A stretch of DNA of 29,355 bases. It comes from a virus (taxonomy: Duplodnaviria; Heunggongvirae; Uroviricota; Caudoviricetes). Location of the stretch: the IMG/VR virus record IMGVR_UViG_2541047722_000019, one strand, 5' to 3'. Below the pieces are notes generated by a model. It did no database searches. It was not told the origin of the DNA and was given only the letters and a program-made list of their open reading frames with translations. Each line of letters opens with the position of its first letter. The stretch's first letter is position 1. Below, one piece after another: positions 4,741-27,865 of this stretch. The position numbers and the translations under genes are program-made.

Positions 4741-4981
4741 GGGTGTCCTCCGTTTTCACTTCGCTGTCACTGCTGCTTCTGCGCTTTGGTGACTGCACAG
4801 CCGGTGTGCCGGCGGGTTTAGTCTCTTCAGGTACCGGCGTCAGATGTTTCAGCGCCACCAGTACCTTCACGTAGTCATGCTCCTCCGGCAGGGAAACCGT
4901 CTTCCCCGGCCAGAGCAGGATTTCGGTTCCGTCCGACAGCGTGACGCCGCTGGCCGGGCCGGAATAGCGGTATTCTTTCAT
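4730..4981 (-). CDS. Hypothetical protein (position of Mu gp38)
   Basis: ATG at 4981 overlaps the upstream stop (TGATG). 83 aa, last cistron before the sheath gene. Confidence 0.45.
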   Translation of the reverse strand: MKEYRYSGPASGVTLSDGTEILLWPGKTVSLPEEHDYVKVLVALKHLTPVPEETKPAGTPAVQSPKRRSSSDSEVKTEDTHGS

Positions 4982-5891: not shown

Positions 5892-5892
5892 G

Positions 5893-6231
5893 TCACACCC
5901 CGCGCAGGATACGAATGACGTCGCCTTCACCCCCGGCTTCATCAAGTGCAATACCACAGGATTTACCGTCGCCGGACTGCGGCACGGCTCTGGCCTGAGC
6001 ATCTGACTGAACAGCCACACCACGGCTGACAGCGGCCCCGGCCTCGACAGCAATAATGCCCAGAACGCTCACCGGCGTGCTGTCGCCGGTAACAGCATCC
6101 ACTTCGGCAACCCCGAGCGCTGCGGCACCGGCTTTACAGGGGGTATTATCTGCCCCGACAAAACGCTGCTGTGCCAGTGCTGCCCCTGCCGTTACGGTTG
6201 TGATCAGAATGACCTGCTGAGTGGTTCCCAT
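5893..6231 (-). CDS. Small head-associated protein (Ala/Gly/Val-rich)
   Basis: 112 aa; ATG with AGGAGG upstream, directly after the major capsid gene. Confidence 0.55.
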   Translation of the reverse strand: MGTTQQVILITTVTAGAALAQQRFVGADNTPCKAGAAALGVAEVDAVTGDSTPVSVLGIIAVEAGAAVSRGVAVQSDAQARAVPQSGDGKSCGIALDEAGGEGDVIRILRGV

Positions 6232-6240
6232 AACGCCTCC

Positions 6241-7194: not shown

Positions 7195-7208
7195 GCTCTC
7201 TCCTTAAA

Positions 7209-8324
7209 TTACAGGCAGCGTGCGACAGCAGCCTCATAGCTGATGCCTTCTTTTTTGGACAGGGCCACTGCTTTCTGATGCAGGGCCAGACGCTCAGGAT
7301 CGGCTTCCGCAAACTCTGCCACATCCACCTTCACCGTGTCGCCGACACGCTCTTTTGTGGCCTGTTCGGCGAAATTCATCACCGGCTCCCCGTCGGAGAG
7401 CAATGAACGAAAGGCGGTGGCCAGCGGTGTGCGGCTTTCCCCCTCAGCAAACTCCACCGGCTTGTCGCCACCGGCGACGGCATCCAGCAGGGCAACCACC
7501 ACGGAGGAGGCGCGGGGAGCCAGACGGCCCTCTGCGACCAGTTTTTCTGCAAAGGCCACATTGTCCTTATGCAGTTGCTCCTGTCTGACCTGTGCATCAC
7601 GCGCATCGCGATCAGCAGCCTGCTGCTTCAGGCGGCGGTTCTCCTCCTGAAGGGCTTCAATCTCTTCTTTTGTCATCGATGATTCCTCGTTACTTGCGGA
7701 AGACGGCCCCGGGCCTGTCTCACTGAATTGTGCACCTGCTGCATCCTGCGACAGTGTGTCGCGGTACGCCTCTTCGCGCAGACTGTTGAGCTGCCATTCC
7801 GGCAGGACTTTTTCTGCCTCGTCCAGACTGAAGCGGGCGATCAGAAAATCGCGCAGCTTTCCCCACAGGGAGGCATTCGTGATGGCCTGCCAGTCGGCGA
7901 ACTCCACCACACCTTCTTCCTGCTCACTGAAGGACACCTGTTTCAGCCCCTTGACGGAAGGTGGCTGTGCCCCGAGAAAGCCCACATGGCGAAGGTAGAG
8001 CACGCCGGGCTTCGGATTGGACGGTGAATCCGGGAGGTAGAAAGAGGCGGACACTTTTTTGAATCGTCCGTCGGTGACCATCTCAGCAAACTGCGGGTCC
8101 AGCTGGGCAGGCTCTGCCATCAGATCGACGCCGCTGAGCGACAGGGCTTTCACCCAGCCCCACGCCGGGTCTTCCGTTCTGGGATGACCAATCACGAGTG
8201 GTGCTTCATGGACGGACGGGTCATAGGCTTTCACGCAGGCGGCAAGATCGTCTGGCGTGAACGGCAGTTTTTTGCCGTGCATATCGGTATGAGTACCGGC
8301 TTTAAAAATGTGAATGGCTGACAT
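7209..8324 (-). CDS. Head maturation protease / scaffold (Mu I-like); possible internal scaffold start near 7676
   Basis: 371 aa; C-terminal third is charged and coiled-coil-like (EEIEALQEENRRLKQQAADRDARDAQVRQEQL). An in-frame ATG (7676-7674) precedes this part. First cistron after the G-I intergenic region. Confidence 0.6.
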   Translation of the reverse strand: MSAIHIFKAGTHTDMHGKKLPFTPDDLAACVKAYDPSVHEAPLVIGHPRTEDPAWGWVKALSLSGVDLMAEPAQLDPQFAEMVTDGRFKKVSASFYLPDSPSNPKPGVLYLRHVGFLGAQPPSVKGLKQVSFSEQEEGVVEFADWQAITNASLWGKLRDFLIARFSLDEAEKVLPEWQLNSLREEAYRDTLSQDAAGAQFSETGPGPSSASNEESSMTKEEIEALQEENRRLKQQAADRDARDAQVRQEQLHKDNVAFAEKLVAEGRLAPRASSVVVALLDAVAGGDKPVEFAEGESRTPLATAFRSLLSDGEPVMNFAEQATKERVGDTVKVDVAEFAEADPERLALHQKAVALSKKEGISYEAAVARCL

Positions 8325-8460
8325 TTTGCTGTCCCGCGTTATGTTGTCGGAGACAGTTTGTGAGAAATGCAGGCCCGGCGATTTTAATCTGCTTTAGAAA
8401 ACATCAGGGGAGAAGGACAGGGAAAGCAATGCGGTGAACCGGAGGCGGTTATAAAACAGA
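8325..8460 (-). promoter_or_regulatory. Candidate late promoter region for the I-to-tail operon (Mu P_I analogue)
   Basis: Non-coding stretch inside the late cluster, upstream of the I-like gene and downstream of a terminator-like hairpin. Contains TAAAAT and a TGTCTCCGACA palindrome 18-28 nt before the ATG. Promoter elements are not verified. Confidence 0.35.
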
Positions 8461-8492
8461 GGCTGTAAAGCCTTTATAAAGGTAATACAGCC
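8461..8492 (-). terminator. Dyad-symmetry hairpin with T-tract after the G-like gene
   Basis: GGCTGTA ... TACAGCC arms enclosing the palindrome CTTTATAAAG, followed on the minus strand by TCTGTTTTAT. Lies 47 nt after the stop at 8539. Confidence 0.45.
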
Positions 8493-8538
8493 CCTCATTC
8501 GCTGGCAATGATAAATCACCCGCCTGAAGAGAGAAAAC

Positions 8539-8997
8539 TCAGCGACGGGCCGCTGATTCAAGATGGCGGACAATGGTATCGAGGATGGGGATTACCACTT
8601 CAGGCTGTAGTTCTCCATCCCCCGTCACCGGCAGGAACGGGCGGGCCGGAAGTTCAACAGACTCATTACGCCCCGTTTTACCCCCGAACTGGTGAATGGC
8701 ACCGTAAACAACGTTGGTCCCCACAACAGCCTGCCGGTCGTCATGGTCGGTTGATACTGACCCCATCAGACGCCCGGTATCCTGCAGTGTCTGCCCGTCA
8801 CGTTCTTCCGCTGCCAGCGAGGGCATCCACCCCGGACGCCCCTCATCAAGAAAGTTAAACTGTGTTTCCGCCAGCAGGGTTCCGGCGATTTTGCGCATCG
8901 CGGGCTCCAGGTCTGTGGCAGCAAGATCCAGCGCACGGAGGCTCCGGCGCAGGGACTTATCGTTAATGGTGATACTGACCAGGTTATCGGAAGCCAT
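8539..8997 (-). CDS. Virion morphogenesis protein (Mu G-like by position)
   Basis: 152 aa, GAGAGGA upstream of ATG, between the F-like gene and the intergenic terminator. Confidence 0.6.
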   Translation of the reverse strand: MASDNLVSITINDKSLRRSLRALDLAATDLEPAMRKIAGTLLAETQFNFLDEGRPGWMPSLAAEERDGQTLQDTGRLMGSVSTDHDDRQAVVGTNVVYGAIHQFGGKTGRNESVELPARPFLPVTGDGELQPEVVIPILDTIVRHLESAARR

Positions 8998-8999
8998 TG

Positions 9000-9821
9000 T
9001 TATCCTCTCAGTTCCTGTTGTGCCAGTGGCTGAAGCGTACCCTGATAGCGGGCCAGGTCGGGACGGTATGCTGCCCCCGGTGCATAAGACCAGCCGACGT
9101 CGGTGGTCACCTTCGTGGTGCCGGTATTAAAGGTGGCCACGTTCCGCATTTCGCCGGTTTTCTCTGAGACCAGTTTCAGTTCCTGGCCCATGGCAGAGCC
9201 GGAGCTGATAACCTTCAGGCCACGGGCACGGACATCCGCCGCACTCAGGGCAATCACACTACAGCGGCAGCGCCAGCCGTTCGGCGGGTAAAATGCCTGC
9301 CAGAACGGGTCATCCCAGCGCAGCACCAGACCATGCAGCGCCAGATGGCTCCTGCGGGTATGGCTGTCGTTGATGCCGGTATACATCCAGTACGGCCTGT
9401 CGTCGACGTTTTCCATCTGCTCCGCCCAACGACCGGCGCTGTAGAGTACGGACATATTGGTGCGAAAGATGGTGTCGAGCCGCCACGGGCTGCCCTGCTG
9501 AATGGTGACCGGCTCACCCGTTACCGGGTCAGTCGTGTCACGTGGTCCCCACCATCCCTTACGCTTCAGCACCGGCTCCAGCTCCTGCCGGAACCAGCGA
9601 TCGGTTTTTCCTTCATCGACAGCCTGCTGCAGTGCCCCGCGAATATCTTCCAGAATATCCAGGCGGGTCACTTTAGCGACGGTAAAGGCGCGGGCATGGG
9701 CTTCCTGCCACATTTCTTCCCAGTCCCAGGTAATCTGATACCCTTTGGACTTCAGGTAACTGACTGCCCGCTTCGGGGGAAGCGTCATGCAGTACGCCAG
9801 TTCAGCCGTTGTCACGCTCAT
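9000..9821 (-). CDS. Head morphogenesis protein (Mu F family)
   Basis: Contains the NGWRCRCSV (N-x-x-R-C-R-C) motif typical of Mu F-like proteins. The track start is TTG at 9848; ATG 9821 with GGGGG upstream is preferred; ATG 9788 is an alternative. Confidence 0.7.
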   Translation of the reverse strand: MSVTTAELAYCMTLPPKRAVSYLKSKGYQITWDWEEMWQEAHARAFTVAKVTRLDILEDIRGALQQAVDEGKTDRWFRQELEPVLKRKGWWGPRDTTDPVTGEPVTIQQGSPWRLDTIFRTNMSVLYSAGRWAEQMENVDDRPYWMYTGINDSHTRRSHLALHGLVLRWDDPFWQAFYPPNGWRCRCSVIALSAADVRARGLKVISSGSAMGQELKLVSEKTGEMRNVATFNTGTTKVTTDVGWSYAPGAAYRPDLARYQGTLQPLAQQELRG

Positions 9822-11298
9822 GCAGACGCCCCCAGATATTTGCCACAAAGAGAATGCGGGCCAGCCGTTCCTGCAGATCGTCCGTGTTCATCTGAGGGTA
9901 GAGCTCCGCCAGTTCGCCCAGCAGCTCAGACGGGTTAACCCCGTTTTCGACCCGCTTAAACAGAGGTGCCAGGACGGGTTCCAGCGTGCCATTTAACACA
10001 CCTCCGTTCATCAGAATGTCCAGCGCGTCGTCAAGCTGCTGCTGAGCCTGAATATCGGCATCAATCGCCTCGGCAAATGACAGCGGCAGCATGTTATTCT
10101 GGCGTTCCGACGGTGGTGTCTCGTCAATATCGCCGTCCTGCAGCTGGTACTCACGCTTAAAGTATTGCGGGGTCAGACGCAGACCCGCCCGGGTGAGTTT
10201 TTCGTCGCGGGTGGCGCGGGTGTCATCAATGGTCTCCTGTTCCCACATGGCCCAGACCGGACACGGCACATCGCCGAAGTTCAGGGTGACCACCGTTCTG
10301 ATAACCTGATTCACTGCTGCCTGAATGATGTCCGCATCCGCATCGCGGATATCAGCCGTTACCTCCAGCCCGGCCTGTGCAGAGGCCTTGTTACTGTTCG
10401 CTTCCGTGGTCTGATTCTGACCAAGTAATGCAATGGAGATCTCACTGCGTGACAGTGTGATCAGCTCGCGGAATACCTCGCTGCTGTCCGCCTTACCATC
10501 CGCGGCTTTGAGTTCGATGCTGCTGTCATCGGGGATGGCGGCCACCGCGTCCTCCACCATCTGCTCCATGGAGTCCAGCAGTTTTTCAATCTCTGCATCA
10601 TTTGCACCCCTCGGGTGCTTACCGATCACCCACGGGGAGCCAAACTTTTCGGCAAAGCGGAGCCAGAATTTCATCCCGCCTTTCTTGAAGGCGACCGGCC
10701 AGAAGCACATGGACAGGTCCGGGAAACCGTAAGGATTGTCATACGAGGCATCCTGTGCCGGCACCACGAATTTTGACGGTGACAGCAGCTCACCCTCCAC
10801 ACCCGCATCACGCGCCCGGAAGCGCAGGCAGTTGTCCGTATCAAACTGAAACCACTCAGGCGGTTTGCCGACAATATCCGTCACTGCCCACGCCCTGACC
10901 GAACGGCCCCACATGATTTCACAGGGCTGATACCCGTAGAGCACGGCATCACTCATCTCACCGATGATGCGGGACAGATCCAGATCGTCGAGCATGTCGC
11001 GGATGAAACGGAAGACCCGGGCAGAAGCGTGACCGCGCTCCAGTCCACGCTCCAGTGATTTGAGCGCTGCTTTACGTCTGCGGATACAGCCCCCGACCAG
11101 CGGGTCGGTGCGCAGTTCGCGGTAGATACGGATATCCCGTCCCTGAGCCTTGAGAATGGGATCAGGATTGGGCAGATACATGCCCAGTCCGTAAAAGTCG
11201 ATCGCGCGGCTGCGGGAGGCAATCTGCGCGGTCAGTGATTTCTGAGGCTCAGAAAAAGCAACAAATTCATCGGGTGAAACCCAGATACCCCTCGCCAT
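9802..11298 (-). CDS. Portal protein (Mu gp29-like)
   Basis: 498 aa between large terminase and the F-like gene; ATG overlaps the terminase stop (TGATG). Confidence 0.7.
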   Translation of the reverse strand: MARGIWVSPDEFVAFSEPQKSLTAQIASRSRAIDFYGLGMYLPNPDPILKAQGRDIRIYRELRTDPLVGGCIRRRKAALKSLERGLERGHASARVFRFIRDMLDDLDLSRIIGEMSDAVLYGYQPCEIMWGRSVRAWAVTDIVGKPPEWFQFDTDNCLRFRARDAGVEGELLSPSKFVVPAQDASYDNPYGFPDLSMCFWPVAFKKGGMKFWLRFAEKFGSPWVIGKHPRGANDAEIEKLLDSMEQMVEDAVAAIPDDSSIELKAADGKADSSEVFRELITLSRSEISIALLGQNQTTEANSNKASAQAGLEVTADIRDADADIIQAAVNQVIRTVVTLNFGDVPCPVWAMWEQETIDDTRATRDEKLTRAGLRLTPQYFKREYQLQDGDIDETPPSERQNNMLPLSFAEAIDADIQAQQQLDDALDILMNGGVLNGTLEPVLAPLFKRVENGVNPSELLGELAELYPQMNTDDLQERLARILFVANIWGRLHERDNG

Positions 11299-12821
11299 CA
11301 GAATCCCTCCAGCATACGGGCCGCCTGACGACGACGGCGTGAGCTTGCCTTCACCGGCCCTTTGTTAATTTCACGGCTGGCGAAATACGCCAGCGCCAGT
11401 GCGATGGCTGAATCCCCGTGACGTTTACCACCATCAGCCTTTGCTTTTGAGCGTTGCTCCGGCACGCGGGGGACACCGTTCACCACCTGAACGGCCCGCA
11501 GGTCATCCAGTGTGTCTTCATCCTTTGGTAAGTCCACCAGGTTACCGTCTTCCAGTGCAGCTTTGACCGGAGGCATATGCTCCCGGTACCAGCCTTCGGT
11601 TGGCATCACCTGCTGAACCCGGCCGGAGCCGTAGCGCTGCATGGCGTATTCAGCCAGATAGGCACCATTACCACGGGCATCAAACGCTGCACCCAGCAGA
11701 CCGGGCAGGCCATCCATCAGATACCAGGTGATTTGCTCCTGCTGCCTGAACGGCACGTTACGCAACTCCAGTACGAATGGCACGCGTCGTATCAGGTTCT
11801 TCTCCTGCAACAACGGGTAGTCCACCGACAAATCCCCGCTACGGCCAAAGTCACGCCCCAGAAAAGAGCGGGCACCAGCGGGGAGCGCCTCCAGTAATGG
11901 TTTCAGATGCTCATCAAGCCAGTCCTGCGTCTCGCGGAAGCGAACCTCATCAGACAGCAGTTCATAACCTTCCTTGCAGGTCAGACGCAATACCGGCGTA
12001 TCAGCGGACATGCGGGACTCTATCAGGGCTCGGGACAGCCAGGCACCGCCACCGTTGGCCGGAATACAGTCAAGCTCTTCGGATGCACCGGCACCGTAGA
12101 ATTTGTACACCGACGCCATCCAGGCCTGCTCGGATGCCTCCGACCATTCCTTCCCGGTGCGCAGACAAACGCGCCGGAACAGCCCCTCAGATACGGCTTC
12201 CCGGAAAGTGATGCGATGTACGCTGCCTCCCTGACGTCCGGCACGGATATCCCCGATAAGCGTATTGAACGGATTGTCGTCACCGTCATGGGTGGAGATA
12301 ACGCGTACCTTTCCCCCCCAGATAAGCATCGCCAGCGCCGCTTTCAGCAGTTCGTCCAGTTGCTCATGGAACGCCGCTTCGTCGATAACAATAATACCCT
12401 GACGGCCACGCAGGTTAGACGGGCGGCTGGAGAGCGCAACAATACGAAAGCCGGAGTCAGGAAATTTGATGGTGTAAGTCCTGATGTGTTTGTCGTCGTC
12501 GTCCTCTTCCCAGAATCCTTCTTCAATTTCACTGGCCGCATAGTTGAATGCCCGTGCCCACATCGCACACGCCTGAATGTATTCGACGGTCATGTCCTGG
12601 TTATAAGCGATGTAATACACATTCATCCCGCCTGCTGGCGCAGAAGAGGCGGCGGTCAGTACGTTATCGGATGCCTCAGCCCATGTAATACCGGTACGAC
12701 GGCTCTTTTCTATCACCTTAAGCGGAGAGGCATCTGCCACCCAGCGCTGCTGGTAGGGCAACAGAACGGGAGGGGCCTTATAACTCGCGGTGTCAGGAAT
12801 GTGCGGCGGCAGCTCCGTCAT
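11298..12821 (-). CDS. Terminase large subunit
   Basis: 507 aa; terminase-type P-loop variant KSRRTGIT and Walker B IIVIDEAAF; acidic EEDDDD linker. Start overlaps the upstream gene (ATGA). Confidence 0.8.
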   Translation of the reverse strand: MTELPPHIPDTASYKAPPVLLPYQQRWVADASPLKVIEKSRRTGITWAEASDNVLTAASSAPAGGMNVYYIAYNQDMTVEYIQACAMWARAFNYAASEIEEGFWEEDDDDKHIRTYTIKFPDSGFRIVALSSRPSNLRGRQGIIVIDEAAFHEQLDELLKAALAMLIWGGKVRVISTHDGDDNPFNTLIGDIRAGRQGGSVHRITFREAVSEGLFRRVCLRTGKEWSEASEQAWMASVYKFYGAGASEELDCIPANGGGAWLSRALIESRMSADTPVLRLTCKEGYELLSDEVRFRETQDWLDEHLKPLLEALPAGARSFLGRDFGRSGDLSVDYPLLQEKNLIRRVPFVLELRNVPFRQQEQITWYLMDGLPGLLGAAFDARGNGAYLAEYAMQRYGSGRVQQVMPTEGWYREHMPPVKAALEDGNLVDLPKDEDTLDDLRAVQVVNGVPRVPEQRSKAKADGGKRHGDSAIALALAYFASREINKGPVKASSRRRRQAARMLEGF

Positions 12822-13360
12822 GATACCACCCCCAGAATTTCCCGGCGCAGTGCCTGTACGGCTTCCGCAGAGAGCCCGCCCTTACGGGCAATTTTCTCGG
12901 CGGCAGCGGCAGCACGTTCAACCCTCTCTCTGACTTCTGCCTGATAGCGCTTGAGGTTGACCGAGGCGCGGGTCAGTGTGGCGATATTTTTTGAAGCCGT
13001 TGCCAGCAGTTTTGCCCGGGCGAAGGGATCGTCGTTTTCCCGCGACTCCTGCAGGCGCATCAGGATATCCGTCATTTCGGTCTGGACGAGGGTTATCAGC
13101 CCGGCTGAACGGTCATCAGGATCGTCTCCGGCCTCCCGGGCAAGCAGACGCGCTGCCTCGGTTGCCGCCCGCACCCGGGCCAGTTGCTGCTCCATTTTGT
13201 AGCCAAACCGCTGCAGGGAAGAGCGGGTGATGCTGTACCCCTTTTCCTTCAACAGACTTTCAAGCTCTGCATAGCCGGTGAAATTATTCTCCGTCAGTGC
13301 CCGCTCAAGCCAGCGACGGACCTCCTTCGGCAGAGAATCAATGCTGCTGCGACGTCCCAT
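12818..13360 (-). CDS. Putative terminase small subunit (Mu gp27-like by position)
   Basis: Basic/helical protein directly upstream of the large terminase. The track ORF starts GTG at 13366; first ATG is 13360. Confidence 0.55.
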   Translation of the reverse strand: MGRRSSIDSLPKEVRRWLERALTENNFTGYAELESLLKEKGYSITRSSLQRFGYKMEQQLARVRAATEAARLLAREAGDDPDDRSAGLITLVQTEMTDILMRLQESRENDDPFARAKLLATASKNIATLTRASVNLKRYQAEVRERVERAAAAAEKIARKGGLSAEAVQALRREILGVVS

Positions 13361-13362
13361 AA

Positions 13363-13674
13363 TCACTCACTCCAGTATTTTTCCGGGCGGGCAATACCGG
13401 GGCCGCATTCCACGGTGTATTCCACAATATCCACACCAAGGCGACTCAGATCGGCAAACCAGTCACCGGAAGGCCTCTTCTCCAGTTCCACCATCTTGCG
13501 ATCTGCCAGGTAATCAAGCTCACGGCGCAGCTCCAGTTGCGTGGTGTCCGGGTAGATGGCGCGGGACACTTCCAGCAGCAGCGTCTCGCTGGCGGTATAA
13601 GGGCGGGTTTTGTTCAGGGCAACCAGCAGACTCCAGCGCAGGGATTCGCGGCGTACCCGGGTAATATCGACCAT
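13363..13674 (-). CDS. Hypothetical protein
   Basis: 103 aa; ATG overlaps upstream stop; between lysis cassette and terminase genes. Confidence 0.4.
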   Translation of the reverse strand: MVDITRVRRESLRWSLLVALNKTRPYTASETLLLEVSRAIYPDTTQLELRRELDYLADRKMVELEKRPSGDWFADLSRLGVDIVEYTVECGPGIARPEKYWSE

Positions 13675-14000
13675 TATTGACCTCCGGTATTGCGGTACTG
13701 CTGTACCACTTCCAGTTTGTTGTAGAGCGCGTCCAGTTTGGCCTCGATGACTGTCTGGCCACGGATATAATCCTCGCGACGGACATAATTCAGCGGTAAA
13801 TCCGCTTTAAATCGCATAAATTCTTTTTCCAGTTCGCCCCAGTTGGAGGCGGACTGTTGCAGGGCCTGCTCAAGGGAGGCGAATCGTGCCGCCTGGCGTT
13901 CTTCTGTTTTACTGAACAACCATTTGGCGAGCCCTCCCACAAACCCCATGAAGGTGAGCAAAAAACTCACCACCGTCCAGAATTCAACCTGCAGTGTCAT
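13674..14000 (-). CDS. Membrane-anchored coiled-coil protein (possible lysis accessory)
   Basis: 108 aa with N-terminal hydrophobic segment FWTVVSFLLTFMGFVGGLAKWLF then a helical region; GGAAGGA upstream of ATG; immediately after the spanin pair. Confidence 0.4.
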   Translation of the reverse strand: MTLQVEFWTVVSFLLTFMGFVGGLAKWLFSKTEERQAARFASLEQALQQSASNWGELEKEFMRFKADLPLNYVRREDYIRGQTVIEAKLDALYNKLEVVQQYRNTGGQ

Positions 14001-14650
14001 TTCTGTAATCCTTCCCGTTCATCCAGTAGCGCGTTTATCTGGTTTCGCCAGCGACGACATTGCCCTGCGTTGTCGATGATGTTGGCAAGGACGTCAAGCT
14101 GGGAGACACCCGAATTGCGTAACCGGGCGTCAGCGGTTTCAGGTTGCCCGGTCGCTGCGCCAGTGCCGGTGCCAGCGGCGGCAACTGAGTCTGAATGACC
14201 GGTGTCGACGGATGCGTTGTCGTATCCGAGTGCGGCGTTGTACTGGCGCACGAAACCGCGAGTAAACACGCACTCAATGGGATGGCTCTTACCTTTTTCA
14301 TCAATCCAGCGCTGTGTGACATCGTTAATTTGCCCCTGTAGTTGTTTGTTCTGGTCCTCCAGTTGAGCAATCTGCTCAAGATAACCAGCTTCAGCCCGTT
14401 GCCCGGCGGCTACCTGCTCCTGATAACGCTCAGACCATGCGCGCAACGCCGCCACCTCACGCCGGGCCTGTTCTGCCCGGTATCCGTCAAAATCCGCCTG
14501 CAGGCGGCTGAGCGCCGCCTGACCGTCAGCGGAGGCCCGGTCGTGGCCTGTGCTGTATCCCAGCCACCAGATCGCCAGCAGGAAGGTGTTCAGGAGAATG
14601 GCCAGCATAATGACCCGCCACGGCAGCGACCGTAACTTACGTACCCACAC
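13997..14650 (-). CDS. i-spanin (Rz-like)
   Basis: Short basic N-terminus then TM (RKLRSLPWRVIMLAILLNTFLLAIWWLGY), followed by a long Q/A/E-rich coiled-coil. GTG 14650 has GGGGAGGGG upstream; in-frame alternatives are ATG 14752 and ATG 14608. Confidence 0.6.
   Translation of the reverse strand: MWVRKLRSLPWRVIMLAILLNTFLLAIWWLGYSTGHDRASADGQAALSRLQADFDGYRAEQARREVAALRAWSERYQEQVAAGQRAEAGYLEQIAQLEDQNKQLQGQINDVTQRWIDEKGKSHPIECVFTRGFVRQYNAALGYDNASVDTGHSDSVAAAGTGTGAATGQPETADARLRNSGVSQLDVLANIIDNAGQCRRWRNQINALLDEREGLQK
14035..14301 (-). CDS. o-spanin (Rz1-like lipoprotein) embedded in the i-spanin gene
   Basis: Alternate frame wholly inside 13997..14650. Lipoprotein signal MKKVRAIPLSACLLAVSC followed by a Pro/Thr/Ser-rich periplasmic domain. 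Confidence 0.6.
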   Translation of the reverse strand: MKKVRAIPLSACLLAVSCASTTPHSDTTTHPSTPVIQTQLPPLAPALAQRPGNLKPLTPGYAIRVSPSLTSLPTSSTTQGNVVAGETR

Positions 14651-15374
14651 AGCTTGCCCCTCCCCATGAGAGATAACGCGGGGCCAGCGTGAACAGGATG
14701 CGCTGGGGATAATGACGGTTCTCCCGCCAGCTGGCAGTGCTGCGTCCGGCATTCACCGTGGCGACATGACCAAACCAGCGGGTGCTGTCCAGCCCTTTTT
14801 GTGATGCAAGCCGCCTGTCCCGCTGTACCCAGCCCAGACCACCGTTATAGCCCGACAGTGTCATGGCCATACGCTCGCAGTCACTGGCGGCGCTGACGCG
14901 CTGCCACAGCCAGCGGTCATAGCTGACCAGCGCCCGGATGGCCCATGCCGGATTAAATGGCTCACGGCTGTTAAGCCCCGGCATCAACTGACTTATCCAG
15001 TCGGCGGTGGCGGGCATGAACTGCGCCAGTCCCTGAGCGCCAACCGGCGAGATCGCATCAGGTCGCCAGCCGCTTTCCTGATGCAGTTGCGCAGCGAAAT
15101 CAGCCACCGGCGCAGACAGTCCCCATTCAAGCCGGGCATTACGGATCACATCATCGCGATACTGCAGCGCTGCCTGCGGAGGCTGCGCTGCGCGGGCCTG
15201 ACTGAAGAAGCCGCCACACCAGAGCAACATTGCGACAAAGAATACCCGTGCCATATGAACCAGAAAGGTCCCGGCGCGGACTGACAGGCGTTCGGTTCTG
15301 ATGAAGACCCTAAAGGCTTCGAAAGCCAGTTTCAGGGACATGCATACAATCCAGGTGATCTGCGGCCAGTTCAT
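14637..15374 (-). CDS. Endolysin, lytic transglycosylase with N-terminal signal or SAR-like segment
   Basis: Family-1 transglycosylase motif HQESGWRPDAISPVGAQGLAQFMPATA. Hydrophobic N-terminal segment MARVFFVAMLLWCGGFF. True start may be ATG 15254 (M41) rather than 15374. Confidence 0.75.
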   Translation of the reverse strand: MNWPQITWIVCMSLKLAFEAFRVFIRTERLSVRAGTFLVHMARVFFVAMLLWCGGFFSQARAAQPPQAALQYRDDVIRNARLEWGLSAPVADFAAQLHQESGWRPDAISPVGAQGLAQFMPATADWISQLMPGLNSREPFNPAWAIRALVSYDRWLWQRVSAASDCERMAMTLSGYNGGLGWVQRDRRLASQKGLDSTRWFGHVATVNAGRSTASWRENRHYPQRILFTLAPRYLSWGGASCVGT

Positions 15375-15376
15375 GA

Positions 15377-15727
15377 TTAAAGCCCCATCGCAACAGCCAG
15401 ACAGACCGCTGCAACAATCAGTGCACGGCGGATTAACGCAGCAGAAAACACCAGGTGAAGGCCGGTCTGTACCGGGAAACGCCCATCAGCCATCAGCCTG
15501 TCGTCATGTTTCAGGTACTGACCGGGACGGGCTTTGGGGAAGAGCGAACGGTCAAGCCAGTAACCCAGCACTGCTGCCAGCGTGATGAGTGCCAGCTTGT
15601 AGATCACAACAGGCAACTGCTGTGGCGAGACCAGAGCGATGGTGCCCAGCAACAGCACTGAGGTCAGCAGCCAGCCGCTGAGGCGAGGTTTTTTAACAGG
15701 GGGAATGAATTTTTTCAGGTTTTTCAT
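15377..15727 (-). CDS. Holin-like membrane protein (first late cistron)
   Basis: Three predicted hydrophobic helices. ATG 15727 has GGAG 6 nt upstream; the track ORF extends to GTG 15760. Sits directly upstream of the endolysin gene. Confidence 0.45.
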   Translation of the reverse strand: MKNLKKFIPPVKKPRLSGWLLTSVLLLGTIALVSPQQLPVVIYKLALITLAAVLGYWLDRSLFPKARPGQYLKHDDRLMADGRFPVQTGLHLVFSAALIRRALIVAAVCLAVAMGL

Positions 15728-15857
15728 GTGTGTCTCCTTGTCTGGTGGAGACAGCATCACAAATACAGGGCGCGAAGGATTTTAAAGCGCGTTAAGAGAG
15801 CCGGGGATACGGGATGTGCAGGATAAACGATGAATTATTCACAGAGGAGAATACGAT
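15728..15857. promoter_or_regulatory. Divergent promoter region (late operon leftward, cargo operon rightward) with RBS-overlapping inverted repeat
   Basis: 130-bp gap between divergent starts 15727 (-) and 15858 (+). Perfect inverted repeat TGTCTCC(9)GGAGACA at 15731-15753, whose one arm is the GGAG ribosome-binding site of the late gene. Confidence 0.4.
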
Positions 15858-16601
15858 ATGACGCAGACACTGAATCCGGTCATCACTGTCACCGTGTCCG
15901 GTCCTGTGGGCAGCGGTAAAAGTTACATATTGGCGCGGATAGAGGAAGTGGTGAAACAGGAATTCGGGGGCAGCGTCATTGTCGATGCTGCAGACGTAGA
16001 TGATGAGCGGCGTATGAGTGGCGATGATCTGACGACCTGGCAGAAGCCACGGGGTGGCACAGTGATCAGGCTGGAGGAATACACGGGACAGGGCCTGTTG
16101 TCATACGGCGAGGAGCGTATCTGTCGGACGAATGAGCTGCTGGATGTTATATGCCCCACGGGCCGGCAACCCTGGATACTGCCCGATGCACTGCATGCCA
16201 CCATTGCGGCACTGATGACAGTTTACGATCAGGAGCTGCTCATGAAGGAGCTACGTAAACTCACCGGTCAGCCAACAGAATGTTTTTCTGCCCCGAAGTA
16301 CGGGAAACAGGAACACATCCCGGTGAACACGCTCCCCGTTAACCAGCCTCCCCGGTTCTTCGACGAATACATTCTGACACCGGAAAATAAAGCTGAGCAC
16401 GAAGAGATCAAAGCGGCGTTGTTCCGGGAAATCAGGAAGATTGCTGAAATGCAACTGGGGGGCGGGCTGGACAGAGTGATGGCGAGAGGAGAATGGGAGT
16501 CGCTGTTTGAAAGAGTTTCCCCGGAATTACTTCCCCTCGCACTGGCTATCGGGATTATGCAGACAGCGGATAAACCTCACTTACGTTCATTAAACACGTA
16601 A
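15858..16601 (+). CDS. P-loop NTPase of unknown function
   Basis: ATG with AGAGGAGA 7 nt upstream. Walker A GPVGSGKS at residues 15-22. No resemblance to phage structural, lysis or transposition proteins that I recognise. Confidence 0.6.
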   Translation: MTQTLNPVITVTVSGPVGSGKSYILARIEEVVKQEFGGSVIVDAADVDDERRMSGDDLTTWQKPRGGTVIRLEEYTGQGLLSYGEERICRTNELLDVICPTGRQPWILPDALHATIAALMTVYDQELLMKELRKLTGQPTECFSAPKYGKQEHIPVNTLPVNQPPRFFDEYILTPENKAEHEEIKAALFREIRKIAEMQLGGGLDRVMARGEWESLFERVSPELLPLALAIGIMQTADKPHLRSLNT

Positions 16602-16981
16602 CGCATAATCCGGGATACGCATTCAGCGATGACTGCATTTTCACCGGTTTTTACTGCATCCAGAAGTGACTCTTTAAATGGTGCGGGCCGGGGCTGCAGA
16701 AGGGTCGGCGTGGCATTGAGCAGACGGAGCGTTTTTTCCGTGAGGACGACATCAGCCGCTCCCACAGCCAGCAACTGAGAGTAACGAATATAGCTGTTAT
16801 CCCGAAGCCATATCAGCGTATCAATAAAATACCGGCACTTTTTCTGGTCGTGATCAACCTGGTCCGGGATATCGAAAAAACCAGAATAAATCAAAACCTG
16901 AGGTGCCGGATGCGTGTTCAGTAATCGGCAGAATATTTTGCCGGTGAGTGCATAAAAATCATCATTTAAGGAGTGCATCAT
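16577..16981 (-). CDS. Hypothetical protein, convergent with and overlapping the P-loop gene 3' end
   Basis: 134-codon ORF that exactly fills the 378-bp stretch where the plus strand has no ORF. 3' ends overlap by 25 bp (16577-16601). Lower GC by eye. Confidence 0.4.
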   Translation of the reverse strand: MMHSLNDDFYALTGKIFCRLLNTHPAPQVLIYSGFFDIPDQVDHDQKKCRYFIDTLIWLRDNSYIRYSQLLAVGAADVVLTEKTLRLLNATPTLLQPRPAPFKESLLDAVKTGENAVIAECVSRIMRYVFNERK

Positions 16982-17195
16982 GAATCCCCGATTAACGTTA
17001 ACAGAACATCAGCGCCGTGCTGAAGCAGTGAACAATGTTCTGGAAGATATTATCCGGTTACATCGCGGAGAACTGAGTGTCTGTCGTGCCGCTTTTCATT
17101 TTCAGGGAATACAAAAGCAGTTTGATACTTCTGTTTTTGCAGAAGGTATTACTTATGCCCTGGACCGGATAAGGTCAGAAAATCGCCCCGGATAA
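16980..17195 (+). CDS. Small hypothetical protein
   Basis: 71-aa ORF with AAGGAG 7 nt upstream of ATG. Its start codon is back-to-back with the start of the minus-strand ORF, so both are unlikely to have independent promoters. Confidence 0.3.
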   Translation: MNPRLTLTEHQRRAEAVNNVLEDIIRLHRGELSVCRAAFHFQGIQKQFDTSVFAEGITYALDRIRSENRPG

Positions 17196-17251
17196 TCCCT
17201 AAACCACATTAACAGAAATCCCACTATCCCTGCCGCATCATGAAAGAACGA

Positions 17252-17282
17252 CCAGCCCGGTGCTTCGGACCCACCGGGCTGG
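17252..17282. other. GC-rich perfect hairpin (11-bp stem, CTTCGG-containing loop)
   Basis: CCAGCCCGGTG-cttcggacc-CACCGGGCTGG. No clean T-tract on the plus strand; a weak one (TCGTTCTTTCA) on the minus strand. Confidence 0.35.
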
Positions 17283-17386
17283 CCATCGTCCCACAGAAGT
17301 GGCTGTGAGCCGACCGAGGTTCAGTCAGTCTCGCGAGACCAGACTAGCCTGCCATATTTTTAATAATTGTAAAAGGCTTACAGATT

Positions 17387-18151
17387 ATGAAAATGAAGAC
17401 ATTACCCATCGTTCCATGGATTGGTGGCAAACGTCGCCTGGCAAAACACATCCTGCCGCTGTTTCCGGCGCATGAATGTTATGTGGAGCCGTTTTGTGGG
17501 GCAGCAGCGCTCTATTTTCTTAAGACACCCGGCAAGATCGAAGTCATCAATGATATCAACGGTGAACTGGTGAATCTGTACCGGGTGGTAAAGCATCACC
17601 TGGAAGAATTTGTCCGCCAGTTCAAATGGGCGCTGGTCAGCCGTCAGATCTACAAATGGCTGCAGATCACCCCGGAAGAAACACTGACGGATATCCAGCG
17701 TGCGGCACGGTTCTACTACCTTCAGAAGCAGGCGTTTGGCGGCAAGGTGGCAGAGCACAGCTTCGGTACCTCCACCACATCCCCGCCACGCTTCAACCTG
17801 CTGCGTATTGAAGAAGAACTGTCAGCAGCACACCTGCGGCTTTCCAGAACAGTCATAGAACACATGGACTGGCAACAGTGCATTGAGCGTTATGATCGTC
17901 CGCACACACTGTTCTACTGCGACCCACCGTACCTGGGTACGGAAGGCTATGGTGTGGATTTTCCTGAAGGGAACTACTCGCGGCTGGCAGAGCTGGCCCG
18001 GTGCATCAGAGGAAAAATGATAATTTCGGTGAACGATATCCCACAGATGCGCGAGGTGTTCACTGGACTGAACATACAGACAGTGAACATCAACTACAGT
18101 CTGGCGGGGAAATCTACGCCGCGCCGTGAACTGGTAATCTGCAACTTCTGA
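17387..18151 (+). CDS. dam: N6-adenine DNA methyltransferase, Dam family (orphan, no adjacent restriction gene)
   Basis: N-terminal WIGGKRRL and VEPFCGAAALYF (SAM-binding motif I) plus FYCDPPY catalytic motif. 254 aa, close to E. coli Dam in size and motif order. Confidence 0.85.
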   Translation: MKMKTLPIVPWIGGKRRLAKHILPLFPAHECYVEPFCGAAALYFLKTPGKIEVINDINGELVNLYRVVKHHLEEFVRQFKWALVSRQIYKWLQITPEETLTDIQRAARFYYLQKQAFGGKVAEHSFGTSTTSPPRFNLLRIEEELSAAHLRLSRTVIEHMDWQQCIERYDRPHTLFYCDPPYLGTEGYGVDFPEGNYSRLAELARCIRGKMIISVNDIPQMREVFTGLNIQTVNINYSLAGKSTPRRELVICNF

Positions 18152-18181
18152 AACAAAACCGGAAAGCACAATGCTTTCCGG
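18151..18181 (-). terminator. Intrinsic terminator for the repressor transcript
   Basis: Perfect 10-bp stem CCGGAAAGCA / TGCTTTCCGG with 3-nt loop, followed on the minus strand by TTTTGTTT. Lies 87 nt after the repressor stop. Confidence 0.5.
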
Positions 18182-18267
18182 TAAACCAAACAACTTCCAC
18201 TATGTCACTGGCGATGTTTTCTGAAAGCATCCAGATCAACCACCTGTCCTTTGTGTCCAGGTCAAAA

Positions 18268-18606
18268 TCAGCCTGCGAGTTTGCTTGGTTTGGGTTGAAT
18301 GAAGACTTTGCCGACCTCAAGAATTGCCCTCCGTTGTTCGGGGCTCATTTCGTCGAATGCATCCATTAACTCTTTCTTTTCTTGTGACACATAAGGTGCA
18401 ACAACAGGCTGACTCCGCACCCCAGTAACTACATACAAAATATCTACACCGATTTCTGATAGTGCAGATAACTGCACTGCAGTAGGAGAAGTGCGATCTT
18501 TTTCCCAATCAATGAAAGTTCTCTTTGCCACACCTATAGCATCAGCCAACCCTTGCTGTGTAAGAGATAGACGCTCTCTTTCTTCTTTAATACGTAACCC
18601 GATCAT
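18268..18606 (-). CDS. Prophage repressor, HTH XRE family
   Basis: MIGLRIKEERERLSLTQQGLADAIGVAKRTFIDWEKDRTSP is a classic XRE helix-turn-helix. The track ORF starts with GTG inside the divergent ner-like gene; ATG 18606 is the likely start and has no obvious SD (possibly leaderless). Confidence 0.7.
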   Translation of the reverse strand: MIGLRIKEERERLSLTQQGLADAIGVAKRTFIDWEKDRTSPTAVQLSALSEIGVDILYVVTGVRSQPVVAPYVSQEKKELMDAFDEMSPEQRRAILEVGKVFIQPKPSKLAG

Positions 18607-18706
18607 GTGAGTTTTTCTGCACTCTTTAAGTTGACTGGTGAGGTAATCTGCACCATAATCTATCACACATAAGGCAAACATCATTGCATCAACAAAGGAG
18701 ACAACG
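18607..18706. promoter_or_regulatory. Switch region: early promoter and candidate operators
   Basis: Near-consensus sigma70 promoter on the plus strand: TTGACT (18631-18636), 17 bp, CATAAT (18654-18659). Direct repeats TCTGCAC at 18616-18622 and 18647-18653, the second inside the spacer. Confidence 0.45.
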
Positions 18707-18895
18707 ATGACTGCAGAACAAGTCAAAGCTCTCTTCCGCCAGCGCGGGATCACTTTCACCCGCTGGGCAGAAGAAAACGGCTACAACCGCAATGAGGTAT
18801 ACCGCGTTCTCAATGGGCAGACCAAAGCCCGTTACGGTAAATCCCATGAAATCGCCGTGAAGTTGGGGCTGAAATCAACAGCTCAGGCAGCCTGA
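18707..18895 (+). CDS. Ner/Cro-like small DNA-binding regulator
   Basis: 62 aa, AGGAG 6 nt upstream, first gene of the early operon divergent from the repressor. Residue pattern RQRGITFTRWAEENGYNRNEVYRVLNG parallels Mu Ner. Confidence 0.55.
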   Translation: MTAEQVKALFRQRGITFTRWAEENGYNRNEVYRVLNGQTKARYGKSHEIAVKLGLKSTAQAA

Positions 18896-20181: not shown

Positions 20182-21951
20182 ATGAATGCTGCCCTGACTG
20201 AACGACTGGTTTATGTCGCCCGCGCGGCACGTGACGCGGGGCATGGTAAACGCGGCGCAGTATACGACGCTGCCTGTGCTGAACTTGGCATGTCCCGCGC
20301 CACTCTGCTGCGCAGGCTGAAGGAGGTATCTGTGACTGATAAACGCAAAAAACGCGCCGATGCCGGGCGCAGCGCCCTGACCCGCGACGAAGCCGCGCTG
20401 ATATCTGCCACACTGCGTGAGGCCACCCGCAAGAACGGTAAGCGTCTCTATTCCATCGCGGATGCAGTGGAAACCCTGCGGGCTAACGGCTTTATATCCG
20501 CAGGCAGAACAGATGAAACCACCGGTGAGTTTTTCCCGTTGTCCGAAGATGCCATCAGCCGAGCCCTGCGTAACTATGGCCTGCACCCGGAACAACTGGA
20601 TGCCCCTGCGCCGCATACCGAAGTGGCCAGTCTGCATCCCAATCATGTCTGGCAGATTGACGCCTCACTCTGCACGCTTTACTACCTGAGCAATGGACAT
20701 AAAGGGCTGCAGGTGATGGACAGCGCGAAGTTCTACAAGAACAAGCCCGCTAACCTTGCCCGTATCGCCAGTGACCGCGTGTGGAGTTACGAGATTACCG
20801 ACCATGCCAGCGGCTGGATTTACGTTGAGTATGTGACGGGCGCGGAATCAGGTGAGAACCTGTGTTCTGTGCTTATCAACGCCATGCAGGAGCGTGGCGG
20901 CGCAGACGTGCTGCACGGTGTGCCGAAAATACTCTATCTCGACCCCGGCTCGGCAAACACCGCGGGTATGACGAAAAACATGTGCCGCTCACTGGGCATC
21001 GACCTGATAGCGCACAAGCCGCATAACGCCCGCGCCACCGGACAGGTGGAAAAGGCGCGGGACATTATCGAACGCAAGCTGGAGCCGGGTCTGAAGTTCC
21101 GGCCGGTTCACAGTCTGGAAGAACTCAACGCGCTGGCCGCGAAATGGCGCAGCCACTTTAACGCCACGGCTGTTCACAGCCGCCACGGTAAAACCCGCAC
21201 GGATATCTGGCTGAAGATTACTGCTGAGCAGCTGAAAAAAGCGCCTTCCGTTGAGGTATGTCGTGAACTGGCTGTGGCGGCACCAGAACTCCGCAAAGTC
21301 ACGCCAAAACTTCGTGTCTCGTTCCGGGGCACTGAATTTGACGTATCAACGGTACCGGGCGTACTGGTTGGTGAAAAACTGATGATTACCCGTAACCCGT
21401 GGCGCAGCGATGTGGCACAGGTGGTTCTGACCGGTGAGGACGGCCACGAGACGTTCTTCCTGGTCGAAGAGGTCAGAAAGAACGAGTTTGGCTTTGCTGA
21501 AGGCGCGGCGGTATTTGGCGAAAGTTACAAAGCCCTGCCGGAAACCCCGGCGCAGATGGCGGCAAAAGAAACCGAAGCGCTGGTCACCGGTACAGACAAC
21601 GCCGCAGATGCAGCTGCCGCACGCAAGGCGAAGGCGCTGCCGTTCGGCGGGCGGCTTGACCCGTATAAACATATCGACGACACCACACTTCCGGCCTATA
21701 TGCCGAAGCGTGGTCAGGCCTCTGACGTACGCGGGCCGCGCACTGAACAACGTCCCATGACTTATGTGGAGGCCGCGAAAGCCCTGCGCGATAAGTTCAG
21801 CGCCAACGGCTTTACCTGGACGCCGGAACATTACCGCCAGTTAACGGCACAGTATCCGGACGGCGTACCGGAAGCCGCACTGGATGAAGTCATGGCCACG
21901 CTGACCACGCCGGCCCGCAGCAGCGTTATCAGTATTGTTAACGGCAACTGA
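20182..21951 (+). CDS. DDE transposase (retroviral-integrase fold)
   Basis: 589 aa. Catalytic triad candidates D in HVWQIDAS, D in LYLDPGS and E in GQVEKARD, with exactly 35 residues between the second D and the E. GGAGG SD. Confidence 0.85.
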   Translation: MNAALTERLVYVARAARDAGHGKRGAVYDAACAELGMSRATLLRRLKEVSVTDKRKKRADAGRSALTRDEAALISATLREATRKNGKRLYSIADAVETLRANGFISAGRTDETTGEFFPLSEDAISRALRNYGLHPEQLDAPAPHTEVASLHPNHVWQIDASLCTLYYLSNGHKGLQVMDSAKFYKNKPANLARIASDRVWSYEITDHASGWIYVEYVTGAESGENLCSVLINAMQERGGADVLHGVPKILYLDPGSANTAGMTKNMCRSLGIDLIAHKPHNARATGQVEKARDIIERKLEPGLKFRPVHSLEELNALAAKWRSHFNATAVHSRHGKTRTDIWLKITAEQLKKAPSVEVCRELAVAAPELRKVTPKLRVSFRGTEFDVSTVPGVLVGEKLMITRNPWRSDVAQVVLTGEDGHETFFLVEEVRKNEFGFAEGAAVFGESYKALPETPAQMAAKETEALVTGTDNAADAAAARKAKALPFGGRLDPYKHIDDTTLPAYMPKRGQASDVRGPRTEQRPMTYVEAAKALRDKFSANGFTWTPEHYRQLTAQYPDGVPEAALDEVMATLTTPARSSVISIVNGN

Positions 21952-24054: not shown

Positions 24055-24249
24055 ATGATATTTAAATGTATTCAGTGCGAGAGGGATATAACAGCCCTGC
24101 GTTTTCACAGCGCCATCGCCGTGATGTCCGGTAAGTACCACGTACCTGCAGTACGCGTCACCCTGGTCTGTCCGTACTGCAGTCAGCATTTTTCGGCAGA
24201 CGTGCCCGTCATGGAATTCTCCCGCCCTGACAGGGAGGACTCGCAATGA
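24055..24249 (+). CDS. Small zinc-ribbon-like protein
   Basis: 64 aa with two CxxC pairs (CIQC ... CPYC); GAGGAG upstream. Confidence 0.45.
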   Translation: MIFKCIQCERDITALRFHSAIAVMSGKYHVPAVRVTLVCPYCSQHFSADVPVMEFSRPDREDSQ

Positions 24250-25945: not shown

Positions 25946-26387
25946 ACAACGTCTTATCCAGCTCATTCATATTGCCCGTAATGAACTGGGTATGGATGAA
26001 GACACCTACCGCCAGATGTTACAGGGGCTGACCGGTAAAGCCTCAACCAAAGGAATGGATACCACACAACTAAACTGCGTGCTGGAATCCATGAAAAGGA
26101 AAGGCTTTCGCGTTAAGCCTGCCGGAAAAGCCAGCTCCGGTTTACCGCTGGATAACCATCCGCAGTCCAGGAAAATCCGTGCGCTATGGCTTGAAATGGC
26201 TGCTGCCGGCATTGTTCGTGACCGTTCAGAAAATGCATTAGCGCGGTGGATCAAGCGGGAAACGGGCATCAGCGCCCTGCGCTGGCTCAGTACTGAACAG
26301 GCAAGCAGTGTTATTGAGAAACTGAAGAAGTGGCAGCGCAGAGCTGCGGGAGTCAAACATGAGCGACCTGAATCAGTTTCGAAGTAA
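25934..26387 (+). CDS. GemA-like early protein
   Basis: ATG with AAGGAG upstream; immediately upstream of the Mor-like gene, as gemA is in Mu. Confidence 0.55.
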
Positions 26388-26757
26388 AGGGCCGGAACTC
26401 CTGGTGGAGCTGGCACAGCATACCTCTGAGACCGTTCGCGAGATTATTGATATTGAGCCCGCAATTGCCGACCAGATTGGTCAGGCCGTCGCGAACCGAA
26501 TGATGCAGGTCTGGGGCGGGCAAAACGTTTATTTCCCGATGGGCATGGTATGGAAGGTCAGTCAGCGCGACCGGGAAATCTTCAGGGAGTTTAACGGACG
26601 CAACCACCACGAACTGGCCCGCAAGTTTGGTGTTTCGCTTCAGTGGGTCTACAGCGTGGTTAAGCGGGTCAGAAAAGAAGAACTGGATCGGATGCAGGGC
26701 AGGTTGTTTGATGAAGATCTGCCAGAGGAGACGAAAGACGTTAACAAATCCAGATAA
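26359..26757 (+). CDS. mor: Mor/C-family transcriptional activator
   Basis: 132 aa; GGQNVYFP and FNGRNHHELARKFGVSLQWVYSVVKRVR match the Mor/C C-terminal DNA-binding region. Last early cistron. Confidence 0.8.
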   Translation: MSDLNQFRSKGPELLVELAQHTSETVREIIDIEPAIADQIGQAVANRMMQVWGGQNVYFPMGMVWKVSQRDREIFREFNGRNHHELARKFGVSLQWVYSVVKRVRKEELDRMQGRLFDEDLPEETKDVNKSR

Positions 26758-27669: not shown

Positions 27670-27819
27670 TGGAATCATCCTTTTTGTTGCGGGTCATGTT
27701 TCAGCAAACTCGATTCTAAGTTGCCAGGAAGGATGATTTCAATGCCCGACTTATCTATCGTATAGCGGAAAAGAATTTCAGTTCTGTTCACCAGAACCCA
27801 TGTTAACCCACTCCAATTC

Positions 27820-27865
27820 GTTATTTATCTCACGGATCCCCCTTCATTTATCTCATGTCTGATCA
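27820..27865. repeat. Prophage terminus with direct repeats (candidate transposase-binding sites)
   Basis: ATTTATCTCA occurs at 27823-27832 and 27846-27855, with a related CTTATCTATCG at ~27750. On the host-facing strand the element end reads 5'-TGATCAGACATGAGATAAATG. Confidence 0.45.

Follow-up and report, generated by a model that had tools for sequence, protein, structure and literature searches.

What does a solitary Dam-like methyltransferase do in the middle of a transposable prophage, and when in the life of the phage is it made? The question is raised by the viral record IMGVR_UViG_2541047722_000019, a stretch of 29,355 nt (the window, in its full length) that holds most of a BcepMu-like transposable prophage together with a host flank. 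An earlier note on this DNA had described the gene as an orphan Dam-family methyltransferase, and had suggested that it is expressed independently of the lytic cascade. The analysis reported here leads to another answer, which depends on the 150 nt or so preceding the start codon. They form a conserved leader RNA with two mutually exclusive pairings, one of which is predicted to hide the ribosome-binding region. We propose, with a probability of roughly 0.6, that the enzyme is a translationally gated, lytic-phase, Mom-like anti-restriction methylase that would mark phage DNA before packaging. The new part is the uncatalogued leader RNA, whereas the methyltransferase gene itself is ordinary.

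The gene under study is the following.

17387-18151, + strand: solitary D12-class N6-adenine DNA methyltransferase, 254 aa (open reading frame list, profile matches)

The open reading frame (ORF) is real, with exactly this extent, and matches Pfam PF02086 with E=5.9e-29 and 102 bits (cutoff 22), over profile positions 1-248 of 253. It also matches the NCBIfam 'dam' subfamily TIGR00571 (117.4 bits, cutoff 114.85) and PHROG 56, DNA methyltransferase (6e-101). Complete motifs for binding of S-adenosylmethionine (SAM) and for catalysis, announced by the earlier note, were indeed present: motif X reads GGK (residues 13-15), motif I reads PFCGAAA (F36-x-G38), which deviates slightly from FxGxG in a way shared by the whole family, D56 is present, and the catalytic motif IV, DPPY, occupies residues 179-182. 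In the family alignment, the DPPY, GGK, F36, G38 and D56 columns are invariant and the motif order is X-I-...-IV. Judged by its sequence, the product is a solitary N6-adenine DNA methyltransferase of the alpha group (D12), and it is intact. The gene was already known, being annotated in RefSeq and published as M.EcoMIV.

The region upstream of the gene comprises the following elements.

17236-17386, + strand: conserved structured 5' leader RNA of the methyltransferase gene, about 150 nt (covariance model match 17226-17392)
17248-17289, + strand: helix P1, a long hairpin with compensatory changes at most pairs (RNAalifold), present in the minimum free energy (MFE) fold
17292-17296, + strand: "up" segment CACAG, the decoy partner in helix P2, predicted ON state
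17303-17311, + strand: "mid" segment CUGUGAGCC, which pairs with "up" (P2) or with "down" (P5) (RNAalifold, covariation)
17317-17350, + strand: helix P3, an irregular hairpin inside P5 (RNAalifold, covariation), present in the MFE fold
17373-17376, + strand: Shine-Dalgarno-like AAGG, the methyltransferase ATG being at 17387
17375-17383, + strand: "down" segment GGCUUACAG, between the Shine-Dalgarno-like AAGG and the ATG, sequestered in P5, predicted OFF state

Aligned over 15 enterobacterial loci, the ~150 nt preceding the ATG proved to be conserved from genus to genus and to carry compensatory changes. In the alignment based on these loci, the leader positions were paired in 94.6% of cells, versus 31-50% in slid controls. 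Double changes were found at 11 leader pairs, versus 1-6 in the slid controls, and the covariation score was 0.271, versus at most 0.092. For 39 diverse sequences, double changes affected 31 of the 39 modelled pairs and the score reached 0.472 (at most 0.075 when slid), but this alignment was fitted to the model, so that the counts are inflated for the modelled helices, P2 being unaffected.

Helix P5 is a long-range helix of 9 bp between mid and down, which spans ~65 nt and ends 3 nt from the AUG. It is 97.8% paired, contains G-U pairs that can form only in the + strand, and has double changes at six of its nine pairs in the 39 sequences. Helix P2 joins mid to up, which is a copy, further upstream, of the down sequence. 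Although the covariance model did not include this helix, it is paired to 93.8%, and 21 double-change cells occur in three of its five pairs, versus at most two in slid controls. The three segments covary together: up, mid and down read CACAG, CTGTGAGYC and GGCTTACAG in some lineages, CGCAG, CTGCAAGTC and GGCTTGCAG in others, and further variants exist. P2 and P5 are mutually exclusive, and, as far as the alignments tell, both alternative pairings are maintained by compensatory mutations. Over 37 leaders the two are near iso-energetic (median difference 0.7 kcal/mol), each appearing about 15 times in the MFE fold. For the leader of the window, the MFE is -57.4 kcal/mol (z = -5.08), the sequestered (OFF) state is favoured by 6.3 kcal/mol, and the unpaired probability of the down segment is ~0 in the ensemble.

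Might the conserved element act as DNA, an operator or promoter whose inverted repeats a regulator binds, and not as an RNA switch? The CACAG-N6-CTGTG inverted repeat is of the type used by dimeric DNA-binding proteins, and a conserved motif lies just upstream of the leader.

17200-17215, + strand: conserved motif TAAANNNCNTTAANAG, candidate site of a promoter or an activator, ~35 nt before the leader
15783-15798: second copy of the motif TAAANNNCNTTAANAG, upstream of the ORF starting at 15858

These are the two matches to the motif in the window, versus 0.21 expected, and 17 of the 18 related enterobacterial loci have the motif in the corresponding position. In the leader, however, it is the pairing that is conserved rather than the sequence, as seen from the compensatory double changes (31 of 39 pairs). 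Moreover, several pairs are G-U in most sequences and would be A-C mismatches on the other strand, so that the structure belongs to the RNA of the + strand. The long-range helix of ~65 nt ending 3 nt from the AUG also speaks against a DNA site, and we consider this explanation very improbable.

Known RNA families did not account for the leader. Neither the window nor 11 loci matched, at the gathering score, any family of Rfam 15, which includes the SAM and S-adenosylhomocysteine (SAH) riboswitch classes, and scans at permissive E-values gave only chance-level matches in 16 sequences in all, the window and 15 loci. In phage phiE125, a sub-threshold match to ctRNA_pGA1 (38.4 bits versus 45, E=9e-5) was seen on the - strand at 2849-2927, opposite the leader, the probable reason being GC-rich hairpins that resemble each other by chance. 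Weinberg et al. in 2017 reportedly described a "D12-methyl" candidate cis-regulatory RNA upstream of D12-class methyltransferase genes. If that motif is present in Rfam 15, it is an RNA other than this leader. A literature search, which took in the main text of PMC5737381, found no account of the "D12-methyl" motif or of this leader.

Three further readings of the leader were tried and rejected. A conserved upstream ORF, starting in the window with the ATG at 17240, has no start codon at that place in Photorhabdus and Brenneria. P3 followed by the T-run is unlikely to be a transcription attenuator, the T-run lying ~7 nt past the stem and the stem base not being extendable. Finally, the invariant CACAG/CTGTG might have been target sites of a CACAG methylase like Burkholderia cenocepacia BCAL3494, but the latter is a type III enzyme of another family, and CACAG itself covaries. 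A separate observation concerns Escherichia phage PhiKM (Bcepmuvirus), the closest phage, with 96.6% nt identity across 4 kb. Its methylase annotation (3913-4767) begins 90 nt before the conserved ATG, inside the leader (covariance model match 3843-4008), and this deposited start was probably mis-called.

How widespread is the leader, and does it belong to the methyltransferase? Of 63 loci outside the BcepMu-like group, about 50 matched a covariance model built from 18 leader sequences, directly upstream of their methyltransferase homologue (64-75% identical). Among the sources are Methylophilaceae, Iodobacter, Burkholderia, Chromobacterium, Nitrosomonas, Cupriavidus, Pseudomonas, Methylophaga and a Francisella metagenome-assembled genome (MAG). 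The model also matched the phages phiE125 and UMP151. In IMG/VR, a scan for the exact core pattern yielded 108 contigs, 106 of which have the methyltransferase downstream, either ~68 nt after the pattern or, with com between, ~225 nt after it. Altogether there are ~160 leader instances in the collections scanned, and the leader is essentially exclusive to this methyltransferase subfamily. In phiE125, it occupies the entire gap after the lysis genes gp24-26, and in UMP151 it abuts the upstream gene, which indicates that the module is embedded in, and co-transcribed with, the late operons of these phages. No promoter is expected in such gaps within operons, a further point against a role of the element as DNA.

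An ORF of 58-65 aa, instead of the methyltransferase gene, comes after the leader in UMP151, Methylophaga, Aquitalea, Paludibacterium and a Pseudomonas MAG. Its product is a Mu Com zinc ribbon (PF10122, E-values from 3e-23 to 2.5e-14), and the ORF overlaps at its 3' end with the start of the methyltransferase gene. A com gene was found directly upstream of the methyltransferase in 15 of 80 genome loci, the order being leader, com, methyltransferase in those examined; four of the 15 (L026, L038, L039 and L041) are without a leader match by the covariance model. In Methylophaga thiooxydans DMS010, identical leader-com-methyltransferase loci were observed on five scaffolds (L079, L080, L083, L084 and L085), which suggests a multi-copy transposable prophage or an assembly duplication.

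The resemblance to the com-mom module of Mu can be detailed. In both cases, a DNA-modification gene of a transposable phage is concerned, and an RNA structure is predicted to mask the translation start (here by pairing of 17303-17311 with 17375-17383). The com gene of the relatives, identified by PF10122, overlaps the methyltransferase start as com overlaps mom, and the inferred role, restriction evasion, is the same. In contrast to Mu, the enzyme is a PF02086 D12 methyltransferase and not Mom, the window is without com, and in the relatives the leader lies upstream of com. The leader has no counterpart in Mu, where the annotated Pmom feature ends ~10 nt before com. Also, the methyltransferase of the window is central, beside the lysis genes and the repressor, and not at the right end.

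On the time of expression, the proposal departs from the earlier note. The following neighbours define the setting of the gene.

2075-15760, - strand: tail, head, terminase and lysis genes, the late/lysis operon
15377-15727, - strand: holin, in the late/lysis block
18268-18759, - strand: Xre-type helix-turn-helix (HTH) immunity repressor (HTH_3, E=3e-7), convergent with the methyltransferase
18158-18182, - strand: intrinsic terminator of the repressor transcript, a hairpin with an 11-bp stem and, only on the - strand, a T-run

The gene sits centrally, with the leftward late operon on one side and the leftward repressor on the other, and is, as the earlier note had it, opposite in orientation to the former and convergent with the latter. 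The terminator that the note placed between methyltransferase and repressor does exist as a hairpin. However, since its T-run is confined to the - strand, it is the terminator of the repressor and not clearly one for the methyltransferase.

With its orientation opposite to the late operon and an upstream intergenic region of its own, which carries the conserved motif, the gene could be a moron-type orphan Dam. As such, it would be expressed from the resident prophage independently of lytic development, and would alter host methylation for epigenetic regulation or protection of the chromosome. Published data on close relatives bear on this. The methyltransferase of the window is identical at 251 of 254 residues (three substitutions) to M.EcoMIV, encoded by EC958_1101 in prophage Phi2 of the E. 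coli ST131 strain EC958; the position of Phi2 was taken from PMC4134206, and its only methyltransferase was compared. The two prophages share the gene order holin, three small ORFs, methyltransferase, repressor, ner-like gene and transposase. They differ by the repressor allele, 33% identical, and the published description of M.EcoMIV does not include a leader RNA. M.EcoMIV was named by Forde et al. 2015, who classed it as an orphan of the D12 class (PMC4659465). In the EC958 lysogen growing in mid-log phase in LB, its transcription was significantly below that of dam, and no methylation pattern or motif could be assigned to it in the single-molecule real-time (SMRT) methylome (PMC4659465). 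Similarly, plu3449 of Photorhabdus luminescens TT01, a solitary D12 methyltransferase gene of 771 bp in prophage P80, was expressed at <0.001x gyrB in three growth phases (PMC6092372). It is a probable orthologue, as it matches in length and location the Photorhabdus orthologues found here.

Low transcription of the 99% identical M.EcoMIV with no extra motif in the methylome, the near silence of plu3449 and an MFE fold of the leader that conceals the ribosome-binding region all argue against the moron hypothesis. Expression independent of the lytic cascade is thus unsupported, and this claim of the earlier note is contradicted. What keeps the moron hypothesis alive for some lineages comes from phage phi1026b. 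The gp27 proteins of the phages phiE125 and phi1026b are methyltransferases 65-66% identical to that of the window. They have the same leader RNA directly upstream (40.1 bits, E=2e-9 for phiE125), and gp27 adjoins the lysis genes there as well. Unlike the prophage of the window, however, they are lambda-like siphoviruses in which gp27 is on the same strand as the lysis cassette and directly after it. For phi1026b gp27 (65% identical), 21,563 reads per kilobase per million (RPKM) were recorded by RNA-seq in a lysogen culture (PMC2920897), a signal that fits moron-like expression in at least one lineage. For the window, we judge moron-type expression improbable.

Which sequence is methylated? 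The enzyme could be a true GATC-specific Dam isozyme that tops up or replaces host Dam on phage DNA, for resistance to MboI/DpnII-type enzymes or in dam-deficient hosts. This possibility concerns the specificity only, and is compatible with late expression. In its favour, the 'dam' subfamily cutoff of TIGR00571 is passed, and the best sequence matches among solved structures in PDB are both GATC enzymes, DpnM (4e-17) and EcoDam (3e-14). Host Dam would also mask methylation of phage GATC sites, which fits the failure to assign a motif. The three enzymes EcoDam, T4 Dam and DpnM share with the methyltransferase the fold family and the motif order (X, I, II, then IV DPPY), and all are solitary or separable. 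Against this, the methyltransferase is only ~25% identical to EcoDam, and scored 68.3 bits with the Dam equivalog model NF008152, far below its cutoff of 441. According to the literature on the EcoDam-DNA structure, EcoDam contacts the GATC bases through residues K9, L122, R124 and P134. In a gap-free alignment of the recognition hairpin to EcoDam and DpnM, these correspond to P10, K120, A122 and S132.

The replacement pattern, PI[IV]PW ... FGGKVxxQxFGTxTTxPP, is kept throughout the subfamily down to 39% identity, which suggests one shared but different mode of read-out, and would argue against canonical GATC read-out of the Dam style. In addition, REBASE listed the type as IIA, with an asymmetric site, and a site was known for no homologue above 65% identity, according to PMC4659465. 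Of the earlier claim of a Dam-family enzyme, membership of the D12 'dam' subfamily stands, whereas the GATC specificity that it implied, with the residues reading GATC replaced, is unsupported. A GATC isozyme is in our opinion rather doubtful, although less so than a moron.

A side observation on GATC sites can be reported here. The 5.9 kb segment 19742-25607, which covers part of the DUF3102 gene, the transposase, the MuB-like ATPase, Gam and small early genes, contains zero GATC, for 16.2 expected with a second-order model and 21.8 from base composition. The gap is also present in PhiKM (6.1 kb). In the Trabulsiella, Buttiauxella and Erwinia relatives it measures 2.3-2.8 kb, and there is none in Brenneria and Xenorhabdus.

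Could the methyltransferase and the ORFs at 15858-17195 together make up a cryptic restriction or defence system, with the enzyme as its modification part? These three ORFs make up a cargo block, from holin to methyltransferase, carried by some related prophages only.

15858-16601: PHROG 3787 protein, 247 aa, with an N-terminal P-loop-like motif (weak AAA_30 match)
16577-16981: PHROG 2266 protein, 134 aa, on the strand opposite to ORF 15858-16601
16980-17195: PHROG 4490 protein, 71 aa

Three points can be made for such a system: the best PADLOC match of the methyltransferase is the 'Type II MTase' model PDLC03253 (375 bits), the first ORF carries the P-loop-like motif, and hidden Markov models often miss restriction enzymes. 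Yet none of the three neighbours matched a nuclease, restriction-modification or defence model in Pfam, NCBIfam, PHROGs and PADLOC. Furthermore, prophages of Photorhabdus, Xenorhabdus, Trabulsiella, Brenneria and others keep the methyltransferase at the same position but lack these neighbours. Among 18 enterobacterial BcepMu-like loci, the position and orientation of the methyltransferase between holin and repressor are kept, while the small genes flanking it vary by genus and no partner gene is conserved. A type II system calls for a cognate endonuclease beside the methyltransferase; the neighbours here neither match a nuclease or restriction-modification model nor are conserved with it. The earlier statement that no restriction endonuclease is adjacent was thus borne out, and the cryptic system is the least probable of the explanations weighed here. 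The methyltransferase is a conserved gene of enterobacterial BcepMu-like transposable prophages, always located between the lysis/late operon and the immunity repressor.

The rest of the window agrees with this type of prophage: a DDE transposase, a MuB-like ATPase, Gam, GemA and Mor are all encoded, the early region is divergent from the late operon, and the insertion sites vary. On the + strand, from 18707 onwards, come a Ner-like gene, an IclR-type HTH gene, a DUF3102 gene and then the transposase, which is followed by the MuB-like ATPase (AAA_22), Phage_Mu_Gam, GemA and Mor.

20182-21951, + strand: DDE transposase (rve), early region
26359-26757: Mor-family gene
27853-29355, - strand: host gene for a phosphotransferase system HPr/enzyme-I fusion, last ORF, host flank

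Among 5426 complete E. coli genomes, 636 carry the 4-kb region of the PhiKM comparison, at 732 places and varied chromosomal positions. The right end of the prophage, and junction with the host, lies at ~27700-27860. The site differs in strain DA33135, where the same prophage interrupts gspL.

Some observations were made on the repressor. Its ORF is probably over-extended and overlaps the start of the ner-like gene; the true start is probably the ATG at 18606, homologues (L015/L021) beginning with MIGLRIK. A promoter-like site for the early operon, TTGACT-17-CATAAT (18631-18659, + strand), falls within the long repressor ORF. With EC958 and PhiKM, the repressor allele shares 33% identity and the flanking genes 93-100%, a contrast that suggests heteroimmune variants.

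How would the switch work? According to the mechanism that we propose, pairing of mid with down (P5) would block ribosome loading, corresponding to OFF, and the up:mid hairpin (P2) would free the ribosome-binding region, corresponding to ON. Synthesis of the methylase would then be gated post-transcriptionally, in addition to the very low transcription in the lysogen. The enzyme would probably be made in lytic growth, so that replicated phage DNA would be methylated before packaging. The methylated DNA would be protected from restriction in the next host, functionally the role that Mom has in Mu under the control of Com. Protection of phage DNA against restriction, which the earlier note had also put forward, is plausible. 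What shifts the leader towards ON may be a protein of the phage or the host, a small ligand (SAM or SAH, for example) or the kinetics of co-transcriptional folding.

Several points weigh against the gated, lytic-phase methylase, besides the inflated pair counts mentioned above. The support for the switch, the timing of expression and the activity of the enzyme is entirely computational. The motif TAAANNNCNTTAANAG is not assignable to one strand or regulator, a + strand scan upstream of the methyltransferase found no canonical sigma-70 promoter, and no promoter that depends on the product of the Mor-family gene was demonstrated there. The appreciable RNA-seq signal of phi1026b gp27 counts here as well. 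Lastly, a search of the window for com found none, so that the analogy with Com is indirect. The small ORF 24055-24249 (64 aa, early region), which has a CxxC...CPxC four-cysteine pattern and is possibly a small zinc-ribbon protein, is not Com-like by Pfam.

Three-way covariation and ~160 instances lend good support to the leader as a candidate new family of cis-regulatory RNAs. More tentatively, and with clearly less confidence than for the gated methylase itself, it may be an undescribed class of phage riboregulator: a bistable switch dedicated to one D12 methyltransferase subfamily of beta- and gamma-proteobacterial phages, with a specific signal timing methylation to lytic replication. For such a riboregulator, the signal might be a metabolite (SAM or SAH), a phage protein or, in some lineages, Com.

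The link with Com connects this methyltransferase subfamily to the com-mom paradigm of Mu, and by analogy suggests that tight translational gating of DNA-modifying enzymes may be a general phage strategy. SMRT methylome surveys repeatedly meet "silent" solitary methylases of prophages to which no motif can be attached, and an RNA switch that hides the start region offers a concrete possible reason. Cloning of the ORF without its leader would be a practical route to revealing its specificity. If the leader is indeed such a riboregulator, many "orphan" methylases of prophages that methylome surveys took for inactive would be translated under certain conditions, and not dead.

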